A stretch of DNA of 64,000 nucleotides. It comes from an uncultured candidate division Zixibacteria bacterium (GTDB lineage Bacteria > Zixibacteria > MSB-5A5 > GN15 > FEB-12). This document shows positions 4,343 through 21,477 of the stretch, piece by piece; the first letter of the stretch is position 1, and the number at the start of each line of letters is the position of its first letter. The stretch spans positions 1-64,000 of the forward strand of contig CAWDXE010000001.1 in assembly GCA_963806185.1 (NCBI GenBank). Direction: 5' to 3'. The notes beneath the pieces were generated by a model that was not told the DNA's origin, made no database searches, and was given only the letters and a program-made list of their open reading frames with translations. Both the position numbers and the translations under genes were made by a program.

Positions 4343-4735
4343 TTACCGGGCAACGTACTCGCGGACGACTGTAGTCTGAATGCCGCCACGATTATTAAAA
4401 ATGCCTTCGAGCCGAGCGCGGCGCGGCCTGACTGTACGAATGATGTCGTCCAACACCTTGTTAACCACATTCTCGTGGAAAATGCCTTTGTCGCGATAGG
4501 CCAGGAGGTACTCCTTGAAGCTCTTTAACTCAAGGCAGAGATTGCTGGGCACATAGCAGAGGCGGAGTTCCGCGAAGTCGGGCAGCCCGGTTTTGGGACA
4601 GACGCAGGTGAACTCGCCGATCGTCATCCGGATTTCATAATCGCGGTCGGTGTAGATATTGGCAAAGGACTCGATCTGGGGCGTTTGCCAGGCCCGGATT
4701 TCGTCCTGCCGACCCTCGTATTCAGATTCAGTCAT
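4343..4735 (-). CDS. queF: preQ1 synthase (7-cyano-7-deazaguanine reductase), single-domain type
   Basis: [31 protein letters not shown] motifs. The true start is ATG 4735 inside the longer ORF. Confidence 0.93.
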
Positions 4736-4840
4736 CCTGTAATATATGGAGTACGCGGACTCATGGCAATGTCGCAGAGAGCTTTTGCCCGGCCCGCCGT
4801 CATTGGTTATATTCGACCCGCCCGGCAGCGGGTCACTTAT

Positions 4841-5566
4841 ATGACTGATACTACGCGCACAAACAATTCCGCCCCCGATCGAGCCGTCGTGCTCCTGAGT
4901 GGAGGGCTCGATTCGGCGACCGCCCTGGCCATCGCGAAGGCCGAAGGATACGCCGTCTGGGCCGTTTCCTTTGATTACGGCCAGCGCCACCGAGTGGAAC
5001 TGGAGGCGGCCCGGCGGGTTGCGATTTCCCAGGGGGTGAGGGAACACCGAATTGTCGCGTGCGATTTGCGCAGCATCGGTGGCTCCGCTCTCACCGATGA
5101 AATTGCCGTGCCCAAAGATAGTCTCCAACCCGGCGTGATTCCGACAACGTACGTGCCGGCGCGGAATACGATCTTCCTGTCGCTTGCGTTGGGGTACGCC
5201 GAGGTGGTTGGTGCCAGAACGATCATCATCGGCGCCAATGCCATCGATTACTCCGGCTACCCCGATTGTCGGCCGGATTACCTGAAGGCTTTTGAGACGA
5301 TGGCTAATCTGGCGACCAAGGCGGGTGTAGAAGGTCGAACGATTCAGATCTACGCCCCGTTGATTCACCTGACAAAAGCTGAGATCATTCGTAAGGGCAT
5401 TGAACTGGCCGTTGACTACCGACTCACTTTCAGTTGCTATGATCCCGATTCCCTGGGGCGTGCCTGCGGTCATTGCGATAGTTGTCTATTGAGAAAGAAG
5501 GGGTTTGCCGAGGCCGGCGTCACGGATCCAACTGTTTACTCTGGCTCAGCCGAGGCGCAAAAGTGA
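4841..5566 (+). CDS. queC: 7-cyano-7-deazaguanine synthase
   Basis: [35 protein letters not shown]. Confidence 0.96.
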
Positions 5567-6309
5567 GCCATACCCCCGGAGTCGTGCCGTGGCCTTCTTC
5601 CTTCGGCGACAAACTGGCCATCAGCGAGGTTTTCTATTCCATTCAGGGTGAAGGTCGCTTTGCGGGGAGGCCGTCGATCTTCATTCGCCTGGCCTACTGT
5701 AATCTGGGCTGTGTCTGGTGTGACACGCGGTTCACGTGGGATCCTGCCAAATTCACGCCGGAGATGCTCCGCACGCCGGTCGAGGCAGTCCAATTGGCCT
5801 TGTCGGTACTTCCGAAGGGAGCGGCAGCCGGGGAGGTGGACGTCGTGATCACCGGCGGAGAACCAATGCTCCAGCAGGAGCGCATTCCTGCCCTCATTGA
5901 CGAAATGGCCAAGGAGGGTTTTGCGTTTTTTGAGATCGAGACCAACGGCATGTATCGGCCGAGTCAAGATATGCTCAGCCGAATCTCCTGGTTCAACGGT
6001 TCACCTAAACTGTCGAACAACAGCCTGGCGATGGATGTCAACTGCGTGCCCGACGTCTTGCGAATACTCGATGCCACCAACCGGGCCGATTTCAAATTCG
6101 TCGTGCAAAGCGAGGACGATATAACGGAGATCGTCACTTGGTATCTCCCCCACATCCGGCGGGAGCATGTATACCTTATGCCGGAAGGGGTGACTGCCCA
6201 GCGTCAGTTGTCCGCGATGCCTTGGGTGCTGGAAGCGTGCCGCAAATATCGGTTTCGGTTCAGCCCGCGCCTGCATGTCATGGCCTGGGGAAACGAACGC
6301 GGCAGATAA
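5563..6309 (+). CDS. queE: 7-carboxy-7-deazaguanine synthase (radical SAM)
   Basis: [39 protein letters not shown] start overlaps the queC stop. Confidence 0.93.
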
Positions 6310-6318
6310 AGGACCGGT

Positions 6319-6681
6319 ATGAAAGCTCGATTGACACACGAATTTCGGTTTGAAGCGTCCCATCAACTGAATCACCTGTCATCCGATCACCCCTGCTATC
6401 GGCTGCACGGCCATTCTTATGCTGTCGTGATTGAGGTGACGGGAGACGTAAACGAGGCGACCGGTTTTCTCGTCGACTACGCCGACATTGTAAAGGCTGT
6501 GCAACCGGTGATCGACCGACTTGATCACAATCATCTGAACGACGTTCCGGGACTGCGGATAGCCTCGGCCGAGTTCATCGCCGCCTGGCTGTGGAAGGAG
6601 ATCAAGCCGCATCTGCCGATCCTCTTCCGTATCTCCGTGGCCGAGACGGCTCTGACAAGATGCGAGTACTCGGGCGACTGA
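6319..6681 (+). CDS. queD: 6-carboxy-5,6,7,8-tetrahydropterin synthase
   Basis: FEASH, CYRLHGHSY, LDHNHLN, SAE motifs. Confidence 0.93.
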   Translation: MKARLTHEFRFEASHQLNHLSSDHPCYRLHGHSYAVVIEVTGDVNEATGFLVDYADIVKAVQPVIDRLDHNHLNDVPGLRIASAEFIAAWLWKEIKPHLPILFRISVAETALTRCEYSGD

Positions 6682-6855
6682 CGTGACCACGTCAGGGTGG
6701 AAAGCACACGGGGGTCGTCCGCCGTCAATACATTGGCAACCAATCCGTTATGCTGAGCGGGCAGTTTCATGGCCCCAGCCTCATCCGAACCGAAAGCTGA
6801 AGAAAGCGAGCAATTACTTCGATCCGAAAAGACCATTTTTAGTTCCAAAGAGGGC

Positions 6856-6891
6856 TTGACAAGCAGACCGATTTTGTTATCTTTTTCACAA
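6856..6891 (+). promoter_or_regulatory. sigma70-type promoter with an overlapping Rex/CRP-like operator
   Basis: TTGACA (6856)-16 nt-TATCTT (6878). TTGTTAT-CTTT-TTCACAA at 6874-6891 resembles TTGTGAA-N4-TTCACAA. The same arrangement recurs at 17735-17770. Confidence 0.7.
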
Positions 6892-6935
6892 GTTTTGGTA
6901 AGTTTAGGACATTTAACGGGTTCGAGGGTCACACC

Positions 6936-7514
6936 ATGAAGCTCCGGCACGTTTTCTCAGTGACGTTGGCTATCCTTTTAATATTGAACGGGTTACTGTT
7001 TGGTCAGGCGATGGACTCCGCAAAAGCGGCGGCCCATATGAACATGATGGGGGCTCACCCGGGCTCAGATGCGAAACCACCCGATTCGTCCAAAATCCGC
7101 AGTTTCATGTCCGACGGAACCGACACTCTTTTTGCTCCCGAGGATTTCATCGTGGTTGAAACCCATCACCAGCTGTACCCCGATTTTCTTCAGATCGACA
7201 CGGTGAAGTTTCACCAGCGCTTTCAACTTGGCGAGGAGAATATCTACGCCGAAGCGTTTCGATTTGTCCCGGACCTTAAGATTACGATGAAGGGTGAGAA
7301 GATCAAGACGTCGGATACATTATATAACCCGGCAGTGCAACTCCGGGTATTTGTCGTCGATACGACAACGCAGAAGGATTCTCTGGTACAAGAGAGCTGG
7401 GCGTTCTCAGTTGGGGGTTCGCCCCACTTCTCCCGTCACTCCTTTTTCGCCTTTTCGCTGAAGAACTACCAAGTCGCTAATCCCAAGTACATTAAGCCGA
7501 CCGAAGGAAAGTAG
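6936..7514 (+). CDS. Exported protein, DUF2155/ResB-periplasmic-like, first gene of the cytochrome operon
   Basis: Signal peptide. The FVPDLKI..S..YNPAVQL..WAF..PHF pattern recalls DUF2155 proteins found beside multiheme cytochrome clusters. Confidence 0.55.
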   Translation: MKLRHVFSVTLAILLILNGLLFGQAMDSAKAAAHMNMMGAHPGSDAKPPDSSKIRSFMSDGTDTLFAPEDFIVVETHHQLYPDFLQIDTVKFHQRFQLGEENIYAEAFRFVPDLKITMKGEKIKTSDTLYNPAVQLRVFVVDTTTQKDSLVQESWAFSVGGSPHFSRHSFFAFSLKNYQVANPKYIKPTEGK

Positions 7515-7523
7515 CAACGGATC

Positions 7524-10500
7524 ATGCGCACCTTCACCTTGCTCCCCGCCATTCGCCGAGTCATCATAATTCTTGGCTTGCTCACTCTTGCTGTTCCGGC
7601 TTACGCCGCCAAACAATGCCTCGATTGCCACAAGAAAGCGCAAGCGGAGTTCTTCGCAAAGAAGATCGTCCACGATCCGGTGAAGCAGCAGAATTGCGAA
7701 TCGTGCCATAAGCGGCACGGCTTTGCCAACAAGTTGGTCCTGACCGACAATACGTCAGAACTCTGCTACACGTGTCATAAGGATTTGAAGGCACAGTTTT
7801 CCGGCGGCAAGGTACACTTCCCGGTGGAAAAGGGAGCCTGCTGGGATTGCCACGACCCTCACTCATCGGACAAAAAGGGGCTGATTCGCAAGGGACCTGA
7901 GGACGCCGATGATCCGGGTGGCTGTTTAAGCTGCCACAAGGACGATATCCAGGCGTTCGGTGCGGCCAAGTTCAGGCATACGCCGTACGAAAAGCAAGAC
8001 TGCCTCGTCTGCCACAATCCGCACAATAGCACCGAAGCCGGTTTACTGCGAAGCGAAGCCGCCACGCTTTGCGCCACCTGCCACAAGCCGGACGACAAGA
8101 AGACGCTTGCCGCTCACGAAGGCAAGTTCATTGCCGGACTTAAGTGTTCGGATTGTCACACCGGTCACTCGACTGACAAAAAGGGATTGCTCTCCTCCAA
8201 CACGCACACACCGTTTGCTGAAGGAAGCTGCGATGGGTGTCATGCTCTGCCCGACGCTGAAGGGAAGATTTCGTTTGCCGAAGGAGTGACGGCCGGAAAT
8301 GTCTGCGCCAATTGCCACGCCGATCAAGCCGACGGGCCCAATCAACCGTTTCCGCATCCTGCGGTGGAAGCAGACAACTGCGACAACTGCCACCAGCCGC
8401 ATTCATCCACTTATGGAAAACTGCTCAAGGATGAAGAAGGAAAGATGTGCCGGGAGTGTCACGCGGACATTGGCGCTGACACCACGCAACTGGTTCACGT
8501 TCCGGTGGTCTTAAACGAGTGCAGTTCGTGCCACGAAGTACACGGCTCGAAAGTCGAGCATCTTCTGAAAAAGACCGGCAGTGAACTCTGCCTGGGCTGT
8601 CACACCGAGTACACCGCGCTGCGCGATTCCGCCAAGTCGGTCCATGCCGGGGCTGAGGACTGCCTGCAGTGTCACGATCCACATCAGGGGAAAACCGGGC
8701 CGCTGCTCAAGGCTCCGCCCGCTGAACTCTGCAGCACCTGTCACGAGCCGGAGAAAACGGCGGTGACGGCCAAGTCGAGTCATTCGCCGTATCTCGATGG
8801 CGATTGTGCTGCCTGTCACTCGCCGCATTTTTCCAAATCGGAGCATCTGATCCGCGTCGACGGTTCGAAGCTCTGCCTCGCCTGTCACCCGCAAATCGAA
8901 TTGCGCATCAATGCGAGCACGCCGCATCCACCGGCGACGGAAGATTGTCGCACCTGTCATACGCCGCACTTCTCGGACCAGCCAAAGCTCATGGTCTCCA
9001 ACCCGAAAGAGATGTGCACGAGTTGTCATGACCTGAAGGATCTCGGAGCGAGCGGCAGCCATGTGCACACGCCCGTAGCCGACGGCGACTGCACGGGATG
9101 CCACGATCCTCATGGTGCGGACGCAAAGAAATTGCTGTCCGGGCGGGCAAAGCCGTTGACGGTGGGCGGCGTGACGATACTCCGCAGTCCGAAAATCGGC
9201 GAGAAGCGCGCCGACCTCTGTTACACCTGCCACGAAACCCTCGAAGACAAATTCAAAGCTGGCAAAATGCATGCGCCGGTGGCCACCGGCGATTGTGACG
9301 CCTGCCATGCGTCGCACGGTTCCGATAACCCTGGATTCATTAAAGACACGCCCGCAAAATTGTGCGGTAATTGCCATGCGCCGGATCAGGCGCTGACAGC
9401 CAAGCACTCCGGCTACGACCTGACTACGGCCGACTGTACCGATTGTCACAACCCGCATTCGTCGACCAAGGAAAAGCTCCTGCGGACCAATGACCACCCG
9501 CCGTTTGCCGACAAAGCCTGTGACAATTGCCATACGGTCGGTCCCGATGGTAAACCACAACTTTCGGCGACATTATCAGAGGTGTGTGCATCCTGCCACG
9601 ACATGGTCGCCACCGAAAACGCCAAAGCAGTTCACCACGCCCCCTTCGAGGGCGGTCAATGCACCGATTGCCACAGTGCGCACGCGTCAGATTACACCCA
9701 CTTGTTGCGCTCCGACGGCAACGATCTGTGCCTCAAGTGTCATACCGATATCAAAGACCTTCAACATTCGCCGGTCCAGCACAAACCATTTGCCACCGGC
9801 AAGTGCCTGGACTGTCACGCTCCTCATGCGTCACAATACCCCAAACTCACGACGAAGCCGGCCGAGAGTTTCTGTCTGAGCTGCCACACGCAACTGAAAG
9901 AAGACATGGGTAAGGGGGTCGTGCACACGCCGGCCAAGAACGGCAAATGTCTCGAATGTCATCTCCCCCACGCCGGCGCGAATGCCTCGCTTCTCGTCTC
10001 AGAAAGAAGCCAACTTTGCGCTCGCTGTCACAATCTAAACAGCCCCGTGCTGACCGCGGCACATCACGGCTTTGATATGACCAATGTCAATTGCCAGAGC
10101 TGCCACGCCGCACATGTCGGACAAAAGGGGAGCAAAGGGCTTCTGTTACCGAAAACGCACCAGCCGTTCCTTTCGCGCGACTGCAGCCAGTGCCACGAGG
10201 CCACGGGCAAGCATGCCTTGAAAGCTCCCGGTAAAGAGCTCTGTCTGACCTGTCATAAACAATTCCAACACAGTATGACCAAGGCTGTGGCGCACCCGCC
10301 GATCACCGACGACAACGGTTGTGTCAAATGCCATTCGCCGCACGTGGGATTCACGAAGAATCTGCTCATCAAGGACGGGGCGGCCACCTGTTTGACGTGC
10401 CACGCGGATAGAGAATTCACCGGCTCGGTGAAACATAAGATCGCGTACGACGATTGCGGCAATTGCCATCAGCCGCATTCAGCGGACTATAAGTCGCTGT

Positions 10501-10721
10501 TGAGCACACCGGACATTATGGCGCTATGCCTCCAGTGTCACAAGGATGCCACCAAAACACACTACCACCCGATGACAAAGGAAATCATCGACCCACGCAC
10601 CAAAAAGCCGATCAACTGCGTGAGTTGCCATTCGCCGCATTCCTCCGATTTTGAGTCTATCCTGGTGGGCGACAAAAACCGTAAGCTGTGCGTGAGTTGT
10701 CACGATGTCAGCCAACACTGA
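7524..10721 (+). CDS. Giant exported multiheme cytochrome c, 42 CxxCH motifs (paired/doubled CxxCH repeat family)
   Basis: Signal peptide ending AVPAYA. 42 CxxCH counted by hand in 1065 aa, in repeating H.P....CxxCH.PH.S....LL......CxxCH units. Confidence 0.95.
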   Translation: MRTFTLLPAIRRVIIILGLLTLAVPAYAAKQCLDCHKKAQAEFFAKKIVHDPVKQQNCESCHKRHGFANKLVLTDNTSELCYTCHKDLKAQFSGGKVHFPVEKGACWDCHDPHSSDKKGLIRKGPEDADDPGGCLSCHKDDIQAFGAAKFRHTPYEKQDCLVCHNPHNSTEAGLLRSEAATLCATCHKPDDKKTLAAHEGKFIAGLKCSDCHTGHSTDKKGLLSSNTHTPFAEGSCDGCHALPDAEGKISFAEGVTAGNVCANCHADQADGPNQPFPHPAVEADNCDNCHQPHSSTYGKLLKDEEGKMCRECHADIGADTTQLVHVPVVLNECSSCHEVHGSKVEHLLKKTGSELCLGCHTEYTALRDSAKSVHAGAEDCLQCHDPHQGKTGPLLKAPPAELCSTCHEPEKTAVTAKSSHSPYLDGDCAACHSPHFSKSEHLIRVDGSKLCLACHPQIELRINASTPHPPATEDCRTCHTPHFSDQPKLMVSNPKEMCTSCHDLKDLGASGSHVHTPVADGDCTGCHDPHGADAKKLLSGRAKPLTVGGVTILRSPKIGEKRADLCYTCHETLEDKFKAGKMHAPVATGDCDACHASHGSDNPGFIKDTPAKLCGNCHAPDQALTAKHSGYDLTTADCTDCHNPHSSTKEKLLRTNDHPPFADKACDNCHTVGPDGKPQLSATLSEVCASCHDMVATENAKAVHHAPFEGGQCTDCHSAHASDYTHLLRSDGNDLCLKCHTDIKDLQHSPVQHKPFATGKCLDCHAPHASQYPKLTTKPAESFCLSCHTQLKEDMGKGVVHTPAKNGKCLECHLPHAGANASLLVSERSQLCARCHNLNSPVLTAAHHGFDMTNVNCQSCHAAHVGQKGSKGLLLPKTHQPFLSRDCSQCHEATGKHALKAPGKELCLTCHKQFQHSMTKAVAHPPITDDNGCVKCHSPHVGFTKNLLIKDGAATCLTCHADREFTGSVKHKIAYDDCGNCHQPHSADYKSLLSTPDIMALCLQCHKDATKTHYHPMTKEIIDPRTKKPINCVSCHSPHSSDFESILVGDKNRKLCVSCHDVSQH

Positions 10722-10729
10722 GACCGAGA

Positions 10730-11629
10730 GTGGTGGTGAAGAGAATACTGATCCCGTGCCTTATGGCGCTCGCCTCTTTGTCTTTCCGGATCGACCTGTC
10801 CGGCCAGACGATCGATCGGATTATCGAATTGACGGCCGGCGGTCAGCGGCTTGTTCGTCCAGTGCAATTGGCCCTCTCGCCTTCCGGCAGCAGTCTGGCC
10901 GTTTGCGACCAGAACGCCAATCGCATCTTCGTGCTCGATCCGGACGGCACCCTGCTCTGGACGATCGGTGAATCGGGTTCGATCGGCCAACCGGCGGCAG
11001 TCTGTTTTGACGGCGAGGACGCCGTCCTGTTCGCTCTCAAGAGTCAGCGCCTGATCTTCCGGACTACCAAGGCAGAACCGACCAAAATTGATACCATCGC
11101 CGATCTGGCGGCAGTGCTCCCGAAGGGGGCGACGGTCGATCAATTGATCGGCATCGCCGGCAATAAGCATCTCATCCTCGATCGCCACGGTTGTGCGATC
11201 TATCGCCTGAAGGCTAACTGGGAACTGGACAGGAAATTGATTTCACACGGTGATCGCAAAGGTGAGCTGTGGGCGCCGGCGGCAATGGCGGTTGATCTCT
11301 CCGGCGATATCATCGTCGCCGATGAGGGCACCTATCCTGTCCAGACGTTTTCGTCTGACGGGAGGTTTCTCTTTGTCGGCTCGTGGAATGCTCCGCAGTC
11401 GAAGCAGATCTGGAGCGCCGGTGCCGTCGCGGTGTCAAGGGATGAGACGGTATGGGTCGCCGACGTAGCAGGGTCACAGTGGCGCGTATTTGATCGCAGC
11501 GGGAATGAACTGGGCCAATACCGGTTTACCCCGCCGATTTTCCGTCCCAACGCCATGATAATTACTCCGGATAATCGATTGGTCGTCGCCGAAGAACGCG
11601 GTTCGGTGGTTGTGCTTCGCCTTCCGTGA
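10730..11629 (+). CDS. NHL-repeat beta-propeller protein
   Basis: Repeats such as P.QLALSP..LAVCDQ.ANRI and WAPAAMAVDLSGDIIVAD. Hydrophobic N-terminus. GTG start at 10730-10736 (exact start uncertain). Confidence 0.85.
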   Translation: MVVKRILIPCLMALASLSFRIDLSGQTIDRIIELTAGGQRLVRPVQLALSPSGSSLAVCDQNANRIFVLDPDGTLLWTIGESGSIGQPAAVCFDGEDAVLFALKSQRLIFRTTKAEPTKIDTIADLAAVLPKGATVDQLIGIAGNKHLILDRHGCAIYRLKANWELDRKLISHGDRKGELWAPAAMAVDLSGDIIVADEGTYPVQTFSSDGRFLFVGSWNAPQSKQIWSAGAVAVSRDETVWVADVAGSQWRVFDRSGNELGQYRFTPPIFRPNAMIITPDNRLVVAEERGSVVVLRLP

Positions 11630-11635
11630 AAGTGA

Positions 11636-12607
11636 GTGAGGACAGTGAGACTACGCAATATCATCTGCACGTTTGGGTTGCTTTTGCCGGCGACGGTGAC
11701 GGCGGGAGACTATCATGTGCCCGGTACGCTGCAGTGCGGTGACTGTCACCTCCAGCATGGCACCGACCCACAGAATCCGGCCTTTGCCGGGCCGTTCACT
11801 TATCTTCTGAAAAAGAACTCCGTCAACGAACTATGCTTGTCTTGTCACGATGGCACGGACGCCGCGGCGCCGGACGTTCAGGACCCGGTCGTGATGTACA
11901 ATTCGACATCGGCACAGGAAAGCGGCGCCGGATTTATCGTCCCGGCAGGCCTGGATAATCCGAACGGACATGCTCTCGGCCTGCCAATGACGACTCCCCT
12001 GCAAGGCGCAAGTAGCCTCAGTGAACTAAACTGCACCAGTTGTCACGCGCCGCACGGCAATGGGAACTATCGCAATCTGAATCAGGATCCGGCCGGTACC
12101 GGCGTGACGATAAGCGTGATCGAGGGAGTTCAGGTCTTTACCCAGATCAAACCGGACATCCCTCCGTCGTCCAATACTTCGGTGATCGCGTATAGCCGGG
12201 ATAATATTGGGTATGCCCGAGGTCTCTCCACCTGGTGCGTTGCCTGCCACGATCAATTATCCGCGAATAATACGGCGGCCTTGCCGGCCCATTTCAATAC
12301 GCACCCCAGTGATATTCCGCTCAACGAGTTCGGGATTTCCGCGCATACCGACGGCGCCCATTGGACGTCGGGCGCGGGAGAAGGATTCGCGGCCGGCGGC
12401 GGTCTGGCCGGCGGACCCCGAGTACCATTTCAGGTACCCAACGCCGACGATTTCATTTCTGCACGGGAGGCGAAGTCGACCAATGAAGTGTCCTGCGTGA
12501 GCTGCCACAAGGCCCACGGCTCCAGTTATCGAAAAGGGCTGATCTGGCCGTACCTGGAAGGGGGCGATGCTTACCTCTCAGGATGCCAGCAGTGTCACAA
12601 CAAGTAG
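11636..12607 (+). CDS. OmcS-like hexaheme cytochrome c (nanowire family), copy 1
   Basis: 6 CxxCH with OmcS-type context: DYH..CGDCHLQH, YLL..CLSCH, GH, CTSCHAPHG.YR, GLSTWCVACH, THP, VPF, VSCVSCHKAHGS, terminal CQQCHNK. Confidence 0.85.
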   Translation: MRTVRLRNIICTFGLLLPATVTAGDYHVPGTLQCGDCHLQHGTDPQNPAFAGPFTYLLKKNSVNELCLSCHDGTDAAAPDVQDPVVMYNSTSAQESGAGFIVPAGLDNPNGHALGLPMTTPLQGASSLSELNCTSCHAPHGNGNYRNLNQDPAGTGVTISVIEGVQVFTQIKPDIPPSSNTSVIAYSRDNIGYARGLSTWCVACHDQLSANNTAALPAHFNTHPSDIPLNEFGISAHTDGAHWTSGAGEGFAAGGGLAGGPRVPFQVPNADDFISAREAKSTNEVSCVSCHKAHGSSYRKGLIWPYLEGGDAYLSGCQQCHNK

Positions 12608-12619
12608 GAAAGTGAACGT

Positions 12620-13720
12620 ATGCGGCGACGGACAATGGTGAGAAATCTGGCGATTGGCACACTGCCGATACTGATTGTGTTCAGTGCCGCGCTCCTGCAG
12701 GCGGACGGCGGCCAATATCGGCAATCGCCTCACGGTTCGCCGAATTCCGGCGTGTTGCGCAGCAGTGCGTATCCGCGCGCGAGCTGTGTGCAGTGCCACA
12801 CCACTCATGAACCAACCAATACCTACCCCTTTGGACTGTTTCGGGAGAATTCCAACGAGCTGTGCATGACGGCGTCTGAGGGAGGGTGCCATGCCGATCA
12901 GCCTACTGGTGCGACGGCGGGTTACCCGGCCCAGGAATCGGACCGAATGCCACAAGGCTCGAGTGATCCCGGATATTTTGAATACAGCGGAGGCGGAGTC
13001 AGAATCGCCGGCCTTAATAATCAGGTGCGCTGGCCGGGGCAGCAGGTTTGGGCCGACCTTCAATACTCACCTCACAATTCCGATCCTGACATGCCGATCA
13101 AAGACGCATTCGGCAATGGCTCATGTGACAACTGCCACGCCGTCCACGGCGGCGCGTCGCTTCATGATATGCTCGATACCACGTATGGCGGCATTGTTGG
13201 TTCGCAGAACGGCCTTCAGACGGACAACTACCGACTCTGTCTCTCCTGTCACAATCAAACCGGGCCGCTCGGCATGATCGACAGTTCTCGCTACATCGCC
13301 GATTACTACGACCGATCCATCAATCCGAGCAACCGCAGCGGTCATGGCATTTCTTCGTCCGGAGGATATGTAAACGCCGGTGACCGTCTCCCCTGTTACG
13401 ACTGTCATAACCCGCACGGCTCACAGGGGAACGGACGACAGGGCGCCAATCGGTATCTGCTCAGCGACCAGCGCCCCGGATGGTATGGGTTGACCGATAT
13501 CAAGACCGATACTGCGCAGGTACGACGCTTCTGTTTTGGCTGCCACAAATCGTCGGACGGCCTGGGGGGCGGCGTGGTAGAGGGACTGACTCTGTCCCCA
13601 CTGCCGGGCGACGTGCCCGATCACACATATGGGGCCACCACGCACTGCTATGATTGCCACGGCCGTGACTATAGTTCGTCTACCGCCAATAATGTTCACA
13701 ACCCGGCCGAAGGTGACTGA
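12620..13720 (+). CDS. Exported multiheme cytochrome c, 6 CxxCH plus one CX7CH
   Basis: CVQCH, CDNCH, CLSCH, CYDCH, CFGCH, CYDCH plus CMTASEGGCH; signal peptide. Confidence 0.88.
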   Translation: MRRRTMVRNLAIGTLPILIVFSAALLQADGGQYRQSPHGSPNSGVLRSSAYPRASCVQCHTTHEPTNTYPFGLFRENSNELCMTASEGGCHADQPTGATAGYPAQESDRMPQGSSDPGYFEYSGGGVRIAGLNNQVRWPGQQVWADLQYSPHNSDPDMPIKDAFGNGSCDNCHAVHGGASLHDMLDTTYGGIVGSQNGLQTDNYRLCLSCHNQTGPLGMIDSSRYIADYYDRSINPSNRSGHGISSSGGYVNAGDRLPCYDCHNPHGSQGNGRQGANRYLLSDQRPGWYGLTDIKTDTAQVRRFCFGCHKSSDGLGGGVVEGLTLSPLPGDVPDHTYGATTHCYDCHGRDYSSSTANNVHNPAEGD

Positions 13721-13722
13721 TA

Positions 13723-15477
13723 ATGAGATGGCTGACTCCCATATGCGTCGTCTTGGTAGTTGGCCAGTTCTACAGTACCTGTGAGGCTACGGGCAGGTTC
13801 TACGGAACGCTAAACGCGACCTATCAGCATACGACGAGGGAAAACACTTCCCGCGTGGTAACCGACACCACCGGTGATTCGCTGCGAACGACGGAGACGA
13901 CGTCGAAATACGGCCAGTCGGAGTTGCTGATCAACTATGAAGACGTTTTGTTCTCCAAGAACTACCTTCGACTGGCGAGCAGCATTTACGGCCGACAAGT
14001 GAACGACGCAGGTAGATGGGAAGTCCGATCCATCTACTATCTCGACCTCAAGAGCACCGGGTATGCGTATAGCAGCAGCTACTCCCCGTACAGCCAGACA
14101 TTTCAACTCCGACTGCCCGATGGTACGCTGGCGACCTCGAAATTGTTCTACCGAGATTGGCGAAACACCATAAATCTCAATTACAGCCGGTGGCCTACGC
14201 TGAATATTACCTACAACTTTGGGAAATCGTTTGATAAACTAGACGTGCGGCGACTCGACACCCGCAACCGCAACGTCATTCTGGAATCGAATTATGCGCT
14301 TGGCCCGGTTGCGGTGCGGGGCAATTACACACAGTCGAGATCAGAAAACCGTCTGGTCTCACCCCGAAACATCACCTCGTTTCGGACGATGAACGGGACC
14401 ACGAGTTTCGCGCAGGACTTCCCTCGCCTGGGATATCTTTCGGCCACATACTCTTTGTTGGATTCGAGGATGCAGACGCAATCAATCGAGACCGTCGTTC
14501 CGTTGCAGTCAAAAGTGCATTCGGTGACCGGATTCTATAACACGCGGTCGTATCATGGCGTGTCGGGCTCGGCCGGTTATTCCGGGCGGTTCACCAGATC
14601 GCGCACACCGCAGGACAAGTTCACCAACCGGGATGAGAGCTTTTCGGGACAGATCGGCTACGCGCCGTTCAGCTTCCTGTCGTTTGACGTCACCAAGATA
14701 TACCAGATCGCTTCGCGCGTCGGCGGACACCGAATCTCCGAGTATCTGACCGTATCTTCGACCGTCAACCGTTACCTGCGTCGAGGGGTGGATACACGAT
14801 TCAGCTGGGCGAGAACGTTCTACCAGCAAGTCGAGGGAAGCGAAGATTCCACGACTACGCGGGGCGGCGGCTACAGCACCGACAGTTATTATGCATCACT
14901 GGCGGCCGTCCCCTACCCGCATACCCGCCTGTTATGTGATCTTTCGATTGCACGCTCCAATGCACCCGAGACTACAGCGCGCCGGTATTTGATTACACGA
15001 TCTTTGAACCTGCTCTTAAATGCATCGCGGAAACTGGAGGGGCGGCTGGGCGCGTCCTTCTCTTATCAGGGGCCGGAATTCACCTTGAATCGAAGCTACT
15101 CGCGCAATGTCAACGCGGGTGCCTCGTACTTCCCGGGCGGAAATATCAATATGAATCTGACCTACGTACGGTCCGTCCTGAATTCTACACCCAGACTCGC
15201 CAACAGCTCACTCAACACGTATATCGGGTATACCTTTCGACAAGTGCTCACCCTCTACCTGAGCCTCAACCGACAGCTTCAGGAAATACCGGAACAAACG
15301 GAGGGCGGCATTGAGAGAGCAACCGTGAAGCCGTATACCGTCAACGCCCAGGCACAGTTACGCTTAACCGCGCGATCCACGTTCACGCTTGGTTACATAC
15401 ATACTGACGGCTCGTCCACAGCCGGACCGTCCAACAAGTCCGGTATCCTCCAGGCGGTTTACAACGGACAATTCTAA
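13723..15477 (+). CDS. Outer-membrane beta-barrel protein (porin-cytochrome conduit or secretion pore candidate)
   Basis: Signal peptide, alternating amphipathic Tyr/Ser/Asn-rich strands, C-terminal aromatic (..VYNGQF); lies inside the cytochrome operon. Confidence 0.75.
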   Translation: MRWLTPICVVLVVGQFYSTCEATGRFYGTLNATYQHTTRENTSRVVTDTTGDSLRTTETTSKYGQSELLINYEDVLFSKNYLRLASSIYGRQVNDAGRWEVRSIYYLDLKSTGYAYSSSYSPYSQTFQLRLPDGTLATSKLFYRDWRNTINLNYSRWPTLNITYNFGKSFDKLDVRRLDTRNRNVILESNYALGPVAVRGNYTQSRSENRLVSPRNITSFRTMNGTTSFAQDFPRLGYLSATYSLLDSRMQTQSIETVVPLQSKVHSVTGFYNTRSYHGVSGSAGYSGRFTRSRTPQDKFTNRDESFSGQIGYAPFSFLSFDVTKIYQIASRVGGHRISEYLTVSSTVNRYLRRGVDTRFSWARTFYQQVEGSEDSTTTRGGGYSTDSYYASLAAVPYPHTRLLCDLSIARSNAPETTARRYLITRSLNLLLNASRKLEGRLGASFSYQGPEFTLNRSYSRNVNAGASYFPGGNINMNLTYVRSVLNSTPRLANSSLNTYIGYTFRQVLTLYLSLNRQLQEIPEQTEGGIERATVKPYTVNAQAQLRLTARSTFTLGYIHTDGSSTAGPSNKSGILQAVYNGQF

Positions 15478-15493
15478 CTATAGGATAGATGCT

Positions 15494-16081
15494 ATGTCGT
15501 ATTACTCGAAACTCCTCCTCATCCCCCTGCTGGCGCTGACGCTGGTTTCCTGTGGGGGGTATCGCCAGTATCTGAACGAGGAGGCCGATTTTGGCTATTA
15601 TCAACGAATCGGCATTCTCCCCTTCTCCAATCTGAGCAATGACAAAGCCGCCTCAGAAAAGGTAACAGCCAGCTTTCTGACCGAGATGATGATCGGCGGC
15701 AGCGTTGAGATCGCCACCATGGGTGATCTGCTGACCACCTATCGAACCGTCATCAAGGACGAACGTTTCAACCTCCCGGAGCAACTGACGGCCGAAGAAG
15801 CGATGGCGATCGGCAAAGGGGCCGAGATTCAGGGCCTGATAGTCGGCGCCGTGCGCGATTACGGCATGGTGCGTTCCGGCCAGACGGATTTCCCGCTGGT
15901 CTCCTTGGTCGTGAGGTTCATTGATTGTCAGTCCGGCAAGATAATCTGGAGCTACGAAATCACGCGCAAAGGCGGGCCGAAATTCCCGATCTTCTCGTTT
16001 GGCGAGACGCATACGCTGGGCGACCTGACGACCAAAGTGTGCCGCAAGACAGCGCAATCGCTTATAGGGACACTCAAATGA
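15494..16081 (+). CDS. CsgG/HfaB/GNA1162-like lipoprotein
   Basis: Lipobox LVSC; RIGILPFSNLS; LIVGAV.DY; VRFIDCQSGKIIW. Confidence 0.78.
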   Translation: MSYYSKLLLIPLLALTLVSCGGYRQYLNEEADFGYYQRIGILPFSNLSNDKAASEKVTASFLTEMMIGGSVEIATMGDLLTTYRTVIKDERFNLPEQLTAEEAMAIGKGAEIQGLIVGAVRDYGMVRSGQTDFPLVSLVVRFIDCQSGKIIWSYEITRKGGPKFPIFSFGETHTLGDLTTKVCRKTAQSLIGTLK

Positions 16082-16683
16082 CAAGGTCAGAAGCTCTCTT
16101 CCGTAGCTGGGGTCTGCTGCCGGCGCTAACTTTGATCATCGCCCTGTCGACAGGCTGCGGCGGCCACTATCTGACCAGGAAGGCGCACGACGCTGCCTTT
16201 ACCGCTGAGCCGCGCATCGCCGTACTGCCGTTCGACAACTTCACGAACAAAGATCAGGTAGCAGCGAAAGTAACCGAGTATTTCCAGACCCTCATGACCA
16301 ACCGGCCGCCGTTTGTCATCGTCGAGGCCGGCACAACGTTCGAATCACTGCGCCGACATCGCATCAGATCGTCAATCCTGCTGAGCGAAGCACAGATGGA
16401 TACCCTGGCCCTGGAACTGGGCATTCAGTACGTGCTTACCGGATCGGTGTTCGAATACAGCGAGGTTGACAACACCTATCTGGGAAAGATACCGCAGATT
16501 TCGTTCGACGCCCGATTGGTGGATTGTCGCTCCAAGAAGACGGTTTGGACCGGCGTCTCAAATGACAGTGGTGATCGTAAGGAATTGCTCTTCGGGATCG
16601 GCGTGACAAGATCGGCCGACGAGCTGGCCCGCAAGATGGCCGAGACACTCGTGAGTGATCTGCAGGGAGTATTCCAGAAGTAA
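16078..16683 (+). CDS. CsgG/HfaB/GNA1162-like lipoprotein, paralog
   Basis: Lipobox STGC; RIAVLPFDNFT; VLTGSVFEY; ARLVDCRSKKTVW. ATG overlaps the upstream stop. Confidence 0.78.
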   Translation: MTRSEALFRSWGLLPALTLIIALSTGCGGHYLTRKAHDAAFTAEPRIAVLPFDNFTNKDQVAAKVTEYFQTLMTNRPPFVIVEAGTTFESLRRHRIRSSILLSEAQMDTLALELGIQYVLTGSVFEYSEVDNTYLGKIPQISFDARLVDCRSKKTVWTGVSNDSGDRKELLFGIGVTRSADELARKMAETLVSDLQGVFQK

Positions 16684-17657
16684 TGAGAATGATAGCGTTA
16701 CATTCTCATCTATTCGGACTAGTCTGCGGCATTCTGCTTGTCGCGTCGACATTGACCGGTCAAGCTTTGACCGGCGAGGCTGAGTTCACGGCGCTCACCT
16801 ACGACAATGGCGCCGACGGTTCTCTGATTTCACCCGGTCAGGCCTTCTTTGACCGAACGGCCAACGAATTGTTTGTCGCCTCACCGGGGAACAATCGCAT
16901 TATTGTGTACGCTCCCGACCTCACTCCCAAATACTCGTTTCCCCATTACGTAACCGATCCCCGCACCAAGGAACAGAAATTCGGCGAACCTAAGGCGGTC
17001 GTGGTGAACAGCCAAGGTGATCTGCTGATTGTCGATAATCTGGCGGACTATCTTGACGTCCTCGATTTTCGCGGCAAGCCGTTGACTCGCATCTATCCCA
17101 ATCGGCTGCTGAAGGACACGACCCTGCGGGTAAAGGCCGACCTGGTAGCGATGGACGAACGCGGTAATGTGTATCTATCCGTCACCGGCGACATCCAGTC
17201 GATCTTGGTCCTTGACCAGTTTCTGGAATTGAAGCGACAAATCGTCAAAAAGGGCGATCCGGACGCTGTTTCGCTCCCGTTGTCAATGGCGGTCGAAGAC
17301 AGCCTGCTTATTATCAGTGACCTTCGCGGCATTCCTGTGATCCGGGTATATGATACACTGGGACAGTATTTGTTTGGTTTTGGCGGTCGCGAGATTGAGA
17401 GATCGGATTTCTCGTTGCCCATCGCCATCTCCATGATGGCAGATTCAAGCGGGCAGCGATATTTCCTCGTGGCCGACGCACTCCGACAAGTCATTAAGTT
17501 CTTGGATTTCACGGGCAAACAGATTTCGAACATCGGCGGGTACGGCATTGCCGCTGGTGCCTTTCGGTATCCGTCGGGCTTAACATTCGACGGAAATAGG
17601 ACGTTTTATGTCGTCGAAAGGGTCTCCGCCCGCATCCAGAAATTCGAACTTCACTGA
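16683..17657 (+). CDS. NHL-repeat beta-propeller protein
   Basis: Repeats PKAVVVNSQGDLLIVD and FRYPSGLTFDG..FYVVE..RIQKF; signal peptide. Confidence 0.85.
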   Translation: MRMIALHSHLFGLVCGILLVASTLTGQALTGEAEFTALTYDNGADGSLISPGQAFFDRTANELFVASPGNNRIIVYAPDLTPKYSFPHYVTDPRTKEQKFGEPKAVVVNSQGDLLIVDNLADYLDVLDFRGKPLTRIYPNRLLKDTTLRVKADLVAMDERGNVYLSVTGDIQSILVLDQFLELKRQIVKKGDPDAVSLPLSMAVEDSLLIISDLRGIPVIRVYDTLGQYLFGFGGREIERSDFSLPIAISMMADSSGQRYFLVADALRQVIKFLDFTGKQISNIGGYGIAAGAFRYPSGLTFDGNRTFYVVERVSARIQKFELH

Positions 17658-17734
17658 TCTTGTATTCCATTATCTCTAAGTTTACCAACAAGTTAATTGC
17701 GCATAAAAAATGCAGATATTATCGCAATTAATCC

Positions 17735-17770
17735 TTGACAAAATCGAGGTATTTGCTATCTTTTTCACAA
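17735..17770 (+). promoter_or_regulatory. sigma70-type promoter with an overlapping Rex/CRP-like operator, driving OmcS-like copy 2
   Basis: TTGACA (17735)-16 nt-TATCTT (17757). TTGCTAT-CTTT-TTCACAA at 17753-17770. Confidence 0.7.
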
Positions 17771-17850
17771 ACCGGAGTGAAATGGAACAGAATCTATTGA
17801 GTTCCTGTTTCGGACGGCCGGTTCAGAATGTTGAGTTTGCAAATGCGTGT

Positions 17851-17868
17851 TAGTGAAAAGAATCACAA
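17851..17868 (+). promoter_or_regulatory. Additional Rex/CRP-like palindromic site in the long leader
   Basis: TAGTGAA-AAGA-ATCACAA, 2 mismatches to TTGTGAA-N4-TTCACAA. Confidence 0.55.
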
Positions 17869-18085
17869 GGCCTACGGGGCTGGCAGGTTTCTCTCGTTGG
17901 CTTCCGCGGCCAATCATCTCCCCTATTCTCGCAATCAAATCACTAATAATAAACAACTTAACCGATCAAGATTCTCTTTTGAGACGATGAAAGGAGGCTT
18001 GGGACAGAGCGACTCTTCTGATTGTACGTATTCGGAAAAGAAACCAACAATTCGAATTGGTATGGTAACAACTAAGGAATCAAAC

Positions 18086-19176
18086 ATGAAGAAACTCATT
18101 TTCCTCGGTCTTGCCGTGATAGCATTGCTTGCCGCTACTGCTATGGCCGGCGACTACCACAAAGGTGCGGATCTGGTCTGCAACGAATGCCACGTCATGC
18201 ACTACAGCCAATCCCACGACTACGCGGGCGACCCGCATCAGGCTCCTCTGGCCAACGGCCCGAACGAGTACCTGCTTCGCAACAAGGTCAACGAACTCTG
18301 TCTGTCATGTCATGATGGAAGCTCGCATGTTCCGGACGTTCTTGGTGAGAACGCTGGTACGGCGGTCCGTCTGGCCGGCGCCCTGAATAAGGAAGACGGT
18401 TCAGTGACCGGCTACACGCCGCAATCCGGCCACTCGCTGGGTTATGCCCAGGCGACCTATCCGGGCAAGGGCACTGCGACCTTCACGCCGAATGCGACTG
18501 AAGGTTTGGAATGCACCGACTGCCACGGCCCGCACGGCAGCCAGACTGGCTATCGCAACCTGAGCAAGGCCACTATCACGTATGCTATCGGAACCAACGA
18601 TGCTACGAAGGACGTGTTTGAGCGCAGCGCGGCCCACCAGTACGCCGGTGGCGACAACCACTACGACCTGAGCAACGTTGATTACAACGAGCCGAACGGT
18701 ACCGGCTCGAAGTATGCTGATATGTGCAAGGCTTGCCATGCTGATTTCCACGGCGCCCTTGGTGGCACGGAAATCGGTGGTCGTGGCCAACTACCAGCGG
18801 CCTGTATGAAGAGTTCCATCGTCACCCGGCGTCCGACGTCAACATCGGCGCTCTGGGCGGCGGCCACTCGGCCATGCGTCGCGCGGCCAGCGGCAGCACC
18901 CCGATTGATCGCGGCTTCGCCATGAAAGCCTACCGCGTGAAAGTCCTGAGCACCAGTGGTGCCTGGGGCGACCAGGGTACCCCGTTGTATCCGCCGGCGA
19001 GCGGCACGCTCCCGACCGACTTGACGCCGAGCTGCATGTCGTGCCACAAGTCGCACGGCAACCAGAATCCGTTTGGTCTGATCTATGCTACCGGCAGTGC
19101 TCCGATCGGCGAAAATGGCGACGGCTCGTTTGCTGATCTTTGCAAGCAGTGCCATATCCAGGGCTACGTCTACTAA
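18086..19176 (+). CDS. OmcS-like hexaheme cytochrome c, copy 2 (one apparent frameshift near 18780)
   Basis: AAGGA SD, then MKKLIFLGLAVIALLAATAMA-GDYH..CNECHVMH, CLSCH, CTDCHGPHG..YRNL, CKACH. After the frame change: EEFHRHPA..PSCMSCHKSHG..CKQCH. Confidence 0.85.
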
Positions 19177-19204
19177 GATTACGCCCGCTTGGTGCTAATA
19201 AATG

Positions 19205-19230
19205 GTAGGGGAGGCAATTTGCCTCCCTAC
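19205..19230 (+). terminator. Stem-loop after OmcS-like copy 2 (weak terminator or mRNA stabiliser)
   Basis: GTAGGG(G)AGGCA-ATT-TGCCTCCCTAC with a poor U-tract. Confidence 0.55.
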
Positions 19231-19270
19231 TTGCGTTGGAAGCAATCTCGGACCGAGGGGAATTTCGGGT

Positions 19271-20396
19271 ATGAAAGCAATCCTCAGCGTTGTTCTCCTG
19301 CTATTGATCGCGACGGCGGCGCTCGCCGGCGACCCGACTGATGTCAGGGGACGACTCGGTTTCATTCATCCGGGCGGTGGAATCCGGGATCAATCCGGAA
19401 TGCCCAGGCAATGCGGCGGCTGCATTTGACCTGGCCCAGTATCATACGGCTCGAGCCTCTATTGTTCGCAGTGCCACGTGATGCACGCCAGCGAGACGCA
19501 TGCAGTGTCCACAACCGTTCCTGATCCATTCGGACCGTTTCCGCGCACGTTCACACCGACCAAGTATCTTCTCAAAGCCTCCGATCCGGTCACGCTTTGC
19601 CTGACCTGTCACGACAATCAGGCGGGAATTCCGGATGTCGTCGGCGCCGACGTGAATGGTCTGTCTGATCGCTCAGCAGGTCGCTTTGAGGCGGTTGGGA
19701 TCGACAATCCGACTGGCCATAAACTGGCGTTGGGCGATCGGACCGGAGTCCGGCGGCTGGGAACTTTGCTTACGTTGCCATATGGCGCGGCGGAGTTCGC
19801 ACGGCGGCCGTCACCTGCATCGACTGTCACAATCCGCATGGCAACGATCGTGTCGCGCAATCTGCAGTGGGCAAGCGATCCGGCGGAACGAGCGTCCGTT
19901 TGGCATGTACATCCGGCCCGGCAGCGCCGGGATGTCTCGCTATGAAACGGACAATATCGGCTTTCCGTCGCCGACGTTGAACGAATTCCGCGAGGTTTCC
20001 AATATGTGCAAGGACTGCCATCACGTCTTGTCGGGACAAATGTATGTCGACTCGATGACAATGGCATACACGAGAAGCACCCGTCATACGATTCCGAATT
20101 TGGGTCCAACGGCACGAATACGATCTCCCAGGGCGATGCGCACGGTTCGACGTCGTCCGCTCATTGGGTTGACGGTACGGGTGGTGGCTTTGTTAATACG
20201 CCGCGACTGCGTTATCTGGTCCGAGGTGCGACGACTTTGCGCATCGCGAACCGTCTCCGCAGATAACGGCGTGTTCTGTCTGACCTGCCACAAGGCACAC
20301 GGCAGTGATCGTTCCTTCTCCCTGACCTTTGCTCCTTCCGGAGAACAGGGCGGCGGTGAAGGATGCGACCAATGCCACAATATGACGGGACTCTAG
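19271..20396 (+). pseudogene. OmcS-like cytochrome, copy 3, 7 CxxCH, broken by about 8 frame switches (probably sequencing error)
   Basis: Signal MKAILSVVLLLLIATAALA. Motifs read across frames: QYH..YCSQCHVMH, YLL..CLTCH, GHKL, CLRCH, CIDCHNPHG, RNL, CKDCH, KHPS, CLTCHKAHGS, CDQCH. Confidence 0.8.
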
Positions 20397-20479
20397 GCCG
20401 CAAGTCCAGAGCACGAGCAACTTACGATTTCGAAGGAGAGCACCGAGAAGTGTTCTCCTTATTTTTTGTGGTTAAGAAA

Positions 20480-21262
20480 TCAATCGAATTGGTGGCAGGC
20501 GCGACACAGTTCATTGCGATCGCTGAACCCGGCGAGATGAAACTGTGTCTGTGCCGATAGCGAGTGACAGGTCTGGCACTCGATCTTCCCCTCGAAGAGC
20601 TGCACGCGAGCATCAACTATCGGTTTGATCCGAGAACCTTCGTTAGGAGCCGAGGTGACCATAGTCACGCCGGTAGGATGAGTGTGGCGACCGTCAAATT
20701 GCGGTATCTCTCCATAGCCGTCCAGGTTCTGCCGGCTCCGCTCTGAGTGACAGAGCAGGCATGCCTCCGATGGAGACAATCCTCCTGAACCCACGAGCTC
20801 GGAATGGAATAGCCGCGCGGCCGCCTTATGGCCGGGTGAAAGAGCCAGCAGATCCTGCCCTAATCCATGACACGAGGCACAGATGGACTCGAGTTGAGGA
20901 CGTCTGGCAGCTATCTGGAACTCTCTTCCGGCGGCGTAGATTGAATCGGGCCGGTGAAAAAAGTGGCAGTCACTGCAGGCTCGAGAGAGGTCTTCGTGAA
21001 AGGTGAGCAGACTGGTACGCTGCAAGACCTGCGCCGTGTGGCACTCGCGACACTGCGCGTCGATGACCGGAATGGACGTCGGGGCGTTGAGATCGGCCAG
21101 GAGCGGGTGACAGCGGGAGCAGTCGATCCCCTTATGGCTCTGAGGCAATACGGGCGCGCGAGGTATGTCGTCGCTTCCGCCCGGAAAATAGCCGAGCATC
21201 GAAGCCAGAATGACCACTGTCCAAACGGCCATCCACTCAGTTTTTTTCAGGAATCTTCCCAT
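20480..21262 (-). CDS. Heptaheme cytochrome c with N-terminal hydrophobic anchor or signal
   Basis: CSRCH, CRECH, CSDCH, CASCH, CLLCH, CQTCH, CRACH. Confidence 0.9.
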   Translation of the reverse strand: MGRFLKKTEWMAVWTVVILASMLGYFPGGSDDIPRAPVLPQSHKGIDCSRCHPLLADLNAPTSIPVIDAQCRECHTAQVLQRTSLLTFHEDLSRACSDCHFFHRPDSIYAAGREFQIAARRPQLESICASCHGLGQDLLALSPGHKAAARLFHSELVGSGGLSPSEACLLCHSERSRQNLDGYGEIPQFDGRHTHPTGVTMVTSAPNEGSRIKPIVDARVQLFEGKIECQTCHSLSAQTQFHLAGFSDRNELCRACHQFD

Positions 21263-21477
21263 TACTCAGCAGTATCGACGACCCGACCGTAGCTCTAAAG
21301 CCTTGCCGTGCAGTCTGTTGAATTTTGGAACAGACGGCCTACGATTGAGTCCGATCGGAGCCGCCGAGGGCACCCGGACAAACCTCTCCTTCATTGATCT
21401 CGAGCCATTAATTGGTATATTGGCTGTCTTGGGCATTGACTGGCTCCACCATCCAGCGAAGAAATAGGGAGTCGAAA

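Follow-up and report, generated by a model that had tools for sequence, protein, structure and literature searches.

The window analysed here, a stretch of 64,000 nt that forms positions 1-64000 of contig C1 in a 3.65-Mb, 82% complete genome of an uncultured bacterium (G000), carries a cluster of multiheme cytochrome genes including an OmcS-like hexaheme cytochrome, the candidate subunit of a filament. Two predicted σ70 promoters, P1 ahead of the cluster and P2 ahead of the OmcS-like gene, are associated with three palindromic boxes. From the comparative sequence data, we consider it quite probable that these boxes are operators of the repressor Rex and give NADH-released repression of the OmcS-like cluster. 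The sites appear to be part of a genome-wide Rex regulon of respiratory and central-carbon genes and not a nanowire-specific switch.

The element TTGACA-16 nt-TATCTT with a TG extension was found at 6856-6883 (P1) and 17735-17762 (P2), both on the forward strand. Direct reading and a promoter scan confirmed the shared sequence, its identical spacing and its coordinates at both promoters as described in an earlier, sequence-only reading of this DNA. Among 17 promoter-like sites in the region 6500-21500, three matched at 10 of 12 positions; P1 and P2 are two of these three and the only ones with a TG extension. P1 combines the -35 box TTGACA, a 16-nt spacer and a TG-extended -10 box at 6878-6883, and transcription would start near 6890. 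P2, predicted as the internal promoter of the OmcS-like gene from its -35/-10 match and its conservation, would start near 17769. Mismatches of the boxes were scored against the 18-bp Rex consensus TTGTGAA-N4-TTCACAA. The first predicted Rex-type operator (box 1, 6874-6891, TTGTTAT-CTTT-TTCACAA) has two mismatches, and its left half also forms the extended -10 of P1. The second (box 2, 17753-17770, TTGCTAT-CTTT-TTCACAA) has three mismatches and overlaps the -10 of P2. Both lose the second guanine of the left half in forming the -10. The third (box 3, 17851-17868, TAGTGAA-AAGA-ATCACAA; two mismatches), which had been noticed before at 17851, is present in the leader at about +83 to +100 relative to the presumed P2 start. 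A 14-mer common to both promoters occurs in four copies in the genome, whereas 0.012 are expected under a fifth-order Markov model; since this word was picked post hoc, conservation is the stronger test. The right half TTCACAA was absent from the three other matches to the same promoter pattern in a genome-wide pattern search. P1 precedes nine co-oriented genes. Immediately upstream of P1 and on the same strand lie queC-queE-queD (4685-6681), and the promoter/terminator scan called no intrinsic terminator between these genes and P1.

The genome search for rex that had been proposed earlier recovered an intact gene in G000 (C1, approximately 1081523-1082197; NCBIfam Rex, E 4e-78, over the cut-off; PDB Rex, E 5.5e-48). 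The encoded protein has a winged-helix domain and an NAD(H)-binding Rossmann domain and keeps the QVRKD helix, the GxGxxG motif and the Tyr. Of 26 relatives, 25 were found to carry rex. A box with one mismatch is located about 50 bp before the G000 gene (C1:1081458) and a box also precedes rex in 24 of these 25 relatives; autoregulation of rex is common in the Rex family. One-mismatch Rex sites in G000 were intergenic in 8 of 8 cases and two-mismatch sites in 12 of 20, by our own gene calls, under which 84% of the genome is coding. A symmetric matrix was trained solely on 21 distinct rex-upstream sites of relatives. With this matrix, box 1 scored 18.5 bits (rank 15 genome-wide), box 3 16.6 bits (rank 17) and box 2 11.2 bits (rank 48). 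At a threshold of ≥ 14 bits, 23 intergenic and 2 genic hits were obtained, compared to means of 0.9 (maximum 4) and 2.25, respectively, for 20 permuted matrices. Because of the intact rex gene, the boxes before rex, the matrix ranks and the evidence on the CRP family given below, Rex appears by far the best candidate for the regulator.

The motif is conserved in relatives, as the sequence-only reading had supposed. A box of ≥ 10 bits was found upstream of the first cluster gene in 20 of 26 relatives, compared to 48 of 3060 genes in G000. The P1 layout (a -35 box, 16-17 nt and TAnnnT inside the left half of the operator) is present in G000 and in 15 of the 26 relatives, one of which reads TATAAT. 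The right half TTCACAA, itself no element of a promoter, is identical in all 16 genomes with this layout: its mean column identity is 1.00, against 0.71 for the spacer and 0.55 downstream. Thus, the proposed overlap of operator and -10 box holds for P1. Five more distant genomes have a palindrome with 0-2 mismatches over the predicted GTG start of the first gene (L050:526, L051:415, L261, L262 and L263), so that the first five residues are encoded within the operator. Three of the six relatives without a P1 box (G179, G143 and G010) have a box at the promoter of the filament gene.

For P2, 16 intergenic regions were compared; two of them, 114 nt long and of another layout (G133 and G117), were left out, which leaves 14. 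The -35 and -10 boxes were found in all 14 genomes. The right half of box 2 is in register in eight, so that the overlap with the -10 proposed earlier is evolutionarily labile at this promoter, and box 3 is kept in 13 of 14. All 14 have at least one box of ≥ 13 bits; box 3 is absent only from G197, where box 2 is strong. Box 3 is probably the main operator of P2, because it is better conserved than the weaker and labile box 2. The distance from the -35 to box 3 ranges from 107 to 160 nt across 13 genomes; strict helical phasing between promoter and box 3 was therefore not supported. In G030, G063, L085, L086, L090, L119 and L155, the internal promoter lies one gene further upstream, before the NHL-repeat gene NHL2, and the boxes are found there too.

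Besides the boxes, the P2 leader was searched for RNA elements. No Rfam match at the gathering score was obtained in the window or in the clusters of four relatives, one tRNA aside; the leader gave four sub-threshold, unrelated Rfam hits and folds no better than shuffled sequences. A riboswitch of the GEMM-I type, as in Geobacter omcS, was rejected on these results, in agreement with the earlier suggestion that control here is unlike that of Geobacter. A TGAAAGGAGG-like conserved word occurs in the window at 17988-17997 and in orthologous leaders, some 60-90 nt ahead of where the OmcS-like gene begins. It is present in about half of the 14 leaders, and a start codon behind the word is mostly missing. 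Possibly, it is a standby ribosome site or a site for an RNA-binding protein.

For a wider survey, 79 loci out of 251 confirmed OmcS-like stretches were used. A box of ≥ 12 bits within 1.8 kb upstream was found for 36 of these 79 loci, compared to 12 of 312 control windows. Sorted by record title, the boxed loci were 16 of 17 in Zixibacteria, 9 of 11 in Ignavibacteria, 3 of 10 in Eisenbacteria and 0 of 8 in Planctomycetota. A window of 500 nt gave 22 of 79, which is an undercount, since some lineages have their internal promoter farther upstream by one gene. Fifty of the 79 loci, chosen to favour distant lineages, were checked for rex. The gene was found in 39 of these 50 genomes, and boxes were present in 13 of the 39 genomes with rex versus 1 of the 11 without a rex match.

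The matrix scan that had been proposed to define the regulon recovered all three boxes; the predicted regulon is a general respiratory one. For annotation, 20 regions were selected among the matrix hits. Genes and operons with a high-scoring intergenic box upstream include an HmcB/HybA-like quinone oxidoreductase operon, the citrate synthase gene, a nuoEF-like operon, indolepyruvate oxidoreductase and hemA-C-D-B. Such boxes were also found before nuoA of complex I, ccoI/ccoN, an aldehyde dehydrogenase gene, a multiheme cytochrome gene trailing ccmCEF, a sulfhydrogenase-like operon and a Qrc/alternative complex III (ACIII)-like operon. Heme supply is plausibly co-regulated with the cytochrome cluster, as judged from the box before the heme genes. 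With a single query, no hemA match was obtained in 14 of 30 relatives (the hemA family was not searched), and ccmC was found in 28 of 30; some heme-rich relatives may have a divergent enzyme or take up heme. Weak conservation (4/28) argued against ccmC as a conserved regulon member. The idea that a TTGTTA half always marks a -10 was rejected as well, as the same half faces away from the gene at actA.

Four further loci were recorded. The densest array among the top hits (L161, G000:C6:116946-117307) has five Rex-like boxes in about 360 bp, 700-1050 bp upstream of a gene for a secreted immunoglobulin (Ig)-domain protein, a target without an obvious redox role. A gene piece with a C-terminal domain of the type IX secretion system (T9SS)/FlgD type lies just downstream. 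An NrfH-like multiheme cytochrome gene is preceded at L176 (G000:C1:791323-791375) by two boxes 35 bp from each other, one of the FNR/HcpR type and a weak one of the Rex type, which suggests dual control of this gene. At L170 (G000:C4:418103-421800), a weak Rex-like box of 10 bits is followed by a DmsE/MtrA-type decaheme cytochrome gene, an unannotated gene of 530 amino acids and a multiheme gene, possibly a second conduit. At L002:266-1866, a TTGAC-N4-ATCAA box separates an HcpR/Dnr-type regulator gene from the neighbouring gene for a 4Fe-4S ferredoxin.

The proposed mechanism is as follows; here and below, published systems are taken as described in excerpts of the cited papers. The NAD+-bound Rex dimer binds both half-sites and is released by NADH (PMC5355995, PMC8376106). 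In the cell studied here, Rex would repress both promoters as long as the NAD pool is oxidised, and a build-up of NADH would release them, in line with what the sequence-only reading had inferred. Bound Rex would exclude RNA polymerase at P1, because the operator contains the extended -10 and the presumed start site. In the Rex structure of Streptococcus agalactiae, two basic residues contact two guanines of TTGTG (PMC8376106). By homology, the contact residues here would be the RK pair of this Rex. In the left half, TTGTTA stands in place of TTGTGA; this G-to-T change supplies the -10 with its first T, and one base-specific contact would be lost by it. At P2, the weaker overlapping box 2 would be backed by the stronger and better kept box 3 about 100 bp downstream. 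Rex would act there mainly via box 3, either as a roadblock for elongation or in cooperation with box 2; phased looping is disfavoured because of the variable spacing between the -35 and box 3.

The OmcS-like gene (18086-19176, forward strand) is frameshifted in the assembly; the break was placed near 18769-18784 by tblastn. Twenty regions of relatives were fetched, and the gene is intact with six CxxCH motifs in all 15 relatives in which it was found. The frameshift is likely an assembly error, because other genes of G000 are also split: iorA, nuoE/F and the HmcB/C-like genes are in pieces, and of 28 matched position bins, five showed more than one frame, four of these within a single region of C7. 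The frameshifted N-terminal piece of the window, searched alone, gave no OmcS match. A family profile was built from 63 of the 79 homologues, those containing stops or lacking the N-terminal pattern being dropped. With this profile, OmcS was the only significant PDB match (E 3.7e-13). An AlphaFold model of a relative's protein (predicted local distance difference test 75.5) matched OmcS (6ef8) in Foldseek with E 2.3e-5 and a template modelling (TM) score of 0.46, and in VIA-align with Z 12.2 and a root mean square deviation of 4.2 over 249 residues, the next match having Z 5.3. At the N-terminus, the pattern (F/Y)H...CxxCHxMH can be aligned with OmcS, and all 63 sequences keep its histidines; a His of this pattern is presumably the inter-subunit ligand in OmcS. 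Thus, the downstream hexaheme family is OmcS-like in sequence pattern and in modelled fold.

The remaining genes of the cluster all lie on the forward strand, and their order is conserved across the family. The first one (6936-7514) encodes 192 amino acids with a signal-peptide-like N-terminus and belongs to no known family: Pfam and NCBIfam searches gave no match, and an Atlas search returned unnamed clusters only, all below 0.9. Its orthologues occur in 27 of 201 genomes of the class, G000 included. It is followed by a likely periplasmic cytochrome c with 42 CxxCH motifs (7524-10721), a first NHL-repeat beta-propeller protein (10763-11629, Pfam NHL), an intact hexaheme OmcS-like paralogue (11645-12607; phmmer to PDB OmcS 6ef8, E 4.2e-8) and a hexaheme cytochrome c (12635-13720) with 12 hemes in some relatives. 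The gene at 13723-15477 encodes a predicted outer-membrane beta-barrel. Pfam gave no match for this protein; those of its Atlas feature look-alikes that have a family name belong to porin/beta-barrel clusters (0.94), which we treat as no more than a lead. Two lipoproteins (15494-16683) are predicted from N-terminal Cys motifs in the sequence, the second being weakly LpoB-like (Pfam LpoB, E 0.004, below the cut-off), and NHL2 (16683-17657, Pfam NHL) precedes P2. Directly 3' of the OmcS-like gene, a strong hairpin at 19203-19232 (z -3.7 for 19195-19245) may be a terminator or a stabiliser; the promoter/terminator scan made no intrinsic-terminator call for it. A second OmcS-related multiheme gene (19273-20396, from the observed ATG) is frameshifted here and has seven CxxCH motifs in relatives. 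A 7-heme cytochrome gene on the reverse strand (20480-21262) is convergent to the cluster, and its homologue adjoins the cluster in some relatives, at either end.

Other binders of the boxes have to be considered. A CRP/FNR-family protein of the HcpR/Dnr type might be one, as the spacing of the CRP core TGTGA-N6-TCACA is identical to that of the boxes, and Desulfovibrio boxes of such form were first assigned to HcpR (PMC545781). A CRP-family helix-turn-helix (HTH) domain was found above the cut-off in G000 and in 21 of 26 relatives, and at 82% completeness a paralogue may have been missed in G000. However, TGTGA recognition is tied to Arg180 (PMC545781), and the sole CRP-family protein found in G000 has Pro at this position (PETLSR); Arg was present in none of 23 HTH stretches examined in relatives. 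In addition, the G000 protein has an FNR-type box of its own, TTGAC-N4-ATCAA, before the adjacent ferredoxin gene. Four relatives (G184, G200, G030 and G143, 94-97% complete) keep cluster boxes and rex, and their assemblies gave no CRP-family match above the cut-off. A CRP/HcpR binder was largely excluded on these three grounds, its residual probability being very small. The sites had been described as Rex/CRP-like; the Rex part of this description stands, the CRP/FNR part very probably does not, and Rex is very likely the regulator, judging by motif and gene content. There is just as little chance that the shared sequence is merely promoter, i.e., that strong σ70 promoters were duplicated or converged and the palindrome is incidental: invariance of the P1 right half while spacer and flank drift, the occurrence of box 3 and of the start-codon boxes without any -10, and the same palindrome before rex all speak against it. 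In its favour, the extended -10 accounts for the left half, and 5 of 14 genomes keep the P2 promoter while the right half is missing. Improbable, if less so, is a switch that is not redox-controlled, either because another regulator has a Rex-like motif or because this Rex is effectively NADH-insensitive. The presence of reductant-generating genes in the regulon would fit such a case; on the other hand, the NAD(H)-binding Rossmann motif and the Tyr are canonical in 20 of 25 relatives (the other five failed the strict pattern), and the Rex-like motif precedes rex itself.

A more serious alternative accepts Rex control of the cluster and concerns its product, which might form no nanowire and be a monomeric or short extracellular or periplasmic cytochrome under ordinary respiratory-operon control. 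The protein is only 17-20% identical to OmcS and about 70 residues shorter, with the TM score of 0.46 given above. Against this, OmcS is the sole significant PDB match both by sequence profile and by structure, the aligned N-terminal pattern has invariant histidines, and the OmcS-like gene is served by a predicted promoter of its own and followed by a hairpin, both of which would suit an abundant subunit. We regard this alternative as a real possibility, though not the one we would choose; we lean towards a nanowire role of the OmcS-like cluster, in which the cytochrome would assemble into filaments.

Several observations weigh against NADH-released repression by Rex. Box 2 is marginal as a Rex site on its own, as 23 of 66 hits of ≥ 10 bits are inside genes in its weak score range; its right half is missing in 5 of the 14 P2-layout genomes and out of register in one. 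For the boxes that cover the start codon, coding constraint may be a partial cause. No cluster box was seen in the DNA examined of three congeneric relatives (G061, G079 and G158, the contig of G158 being short), although two of them were found to have rex. Among the distant genomes carrying rex, 26 of 39 have no box within 1.8 kb of the OmcS-like gene, and the link between Rex box and OmcS-like gene is therefore lineage-limited. The relatives are non-independent samples, so that box counts are descriptive. Conservation of the regulon is uneven among the 30 genomes queried: a box was kept for hemA in 12 of 15 best orthologues (not counting 4 weaker matches), for actA in 9 of 27 (not counting 3 weak matches) and for ccmC in 4 of 28. 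The regulon includes producers of reduced carriers, namely citrate synthase, indolepyruvate oxidoreductase and aldehyde dehydrogenase, which fit a simple electron-dumping story less well. The window's own copy of the OmcS-like gene is frameshifted. Finally, we infer Rex binding, repression, release by NADH and the start sites from sequence.

Among published systems, the predicted Rex regulon of Calderihabitans maritimus KKC1 is similar in that Rex motifs precede extracellular-type multiheme cytochromes and hydrogenases. There, the Rex-like motif TTGTGA-N6-TCACAA was found before three putative extracellular multiheme cytochrome genes and hydrogenases and was proposed to respond to high NADH/NAD+ (PMC7306483). 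KKC1 is a Gram-positive thermophile with 7-12-heme cytochromes, whereas an OmcS-fold cytochrome and a cluster with barrel, lipoproteins and 42-heme cytochrome are served by two promoters here; the KKC1 genes are backed by expression data, those described here by conservation only. The Streptomyces Rex regulon (PMC5355995) resembles the one predicted here in its consensus, in a rex gene that is autoregulated and in having hemA and nuoA as members; its operators lie at the start site or just past it, as would those described here if the predicted starts are right. It differs in concerning aerobic cytochrome bd respiration, without extracellular cytochromes, and in that binding is experimental, whereas the present sites are predicted (PMC5355995). 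The omcS-omcT-osc locus of Geobacter sulfurreducens likewise has an OmcS-fold hexaheme cytochrome (6ef8) with OmcS-like paralogues and accessory genes alongside (PMC13194489, PMC6456294), but omcST is under a cyclic GMP-AMP (cGAMP)/cyclic di-GMP riboswitch with a 2-3-fold effect (PMC6456294), and none was found here.

Binding of Rex to a Desulfovibrio element was reportedly described by Christensen et al. in 2015. The boxes of Desulfovibrio sat and apsAB have a degenerate left half (TTGTtAA, TTGctAA, TTGTaAA), an intact right half and an overlap with the -10, like those described here (PMC545781). They were assigned to HcpR in that paper and are presumably the element later shown to be bound by Rex. 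Rex represses sat in Desulfovibrio (PMC7531388); hence, a terminal electron-accepting pathway is under Rex repression there as well, but the target is cytoplasmic sulfate reduction. In the literature searched, outside of which most subscription papers lay, no paper was found that describes Rex control over an OmcS-type gene in its title or in the opening of its abstract. The regulator and its logic are familiar, and Rex motifs ahead of extracellular cytochromes were already a published prediction (PMC7306483, as excerpted); the OmcS-like target is the newer part.

Taken together, the data raise the tentative picture of an uncultured lineage, likely Zixibacteria, that wires a whole chain of extracellular electron export to NADH/NAD+ via Rex. 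The chain would comprise heme synthesis, quinone-coupled complexes, a 42-heme relay, an outer-membrane barrel and an OmcS-type nanowire with a doubly guarded promoter of its own; we consider this picture somewhat less likely than not. The compact design, with a -10 that makes up half an operator, might be put to use as an NADH-responsive promoter in engineered electroactive cells. The first Zixibacteria genome paper leaned to iron oxidation for a different, Mtr-type cluster (PMC3903129, as excerpted). If the present interpretation is true, it would provide a sequence-level argument that such conduits export electrons, as an outward electron valve, and the nanowire-type cytochrome output would be tied directly to the electron surplus of the cell, whereas Geobacter uses a surface or second-messenger signal.

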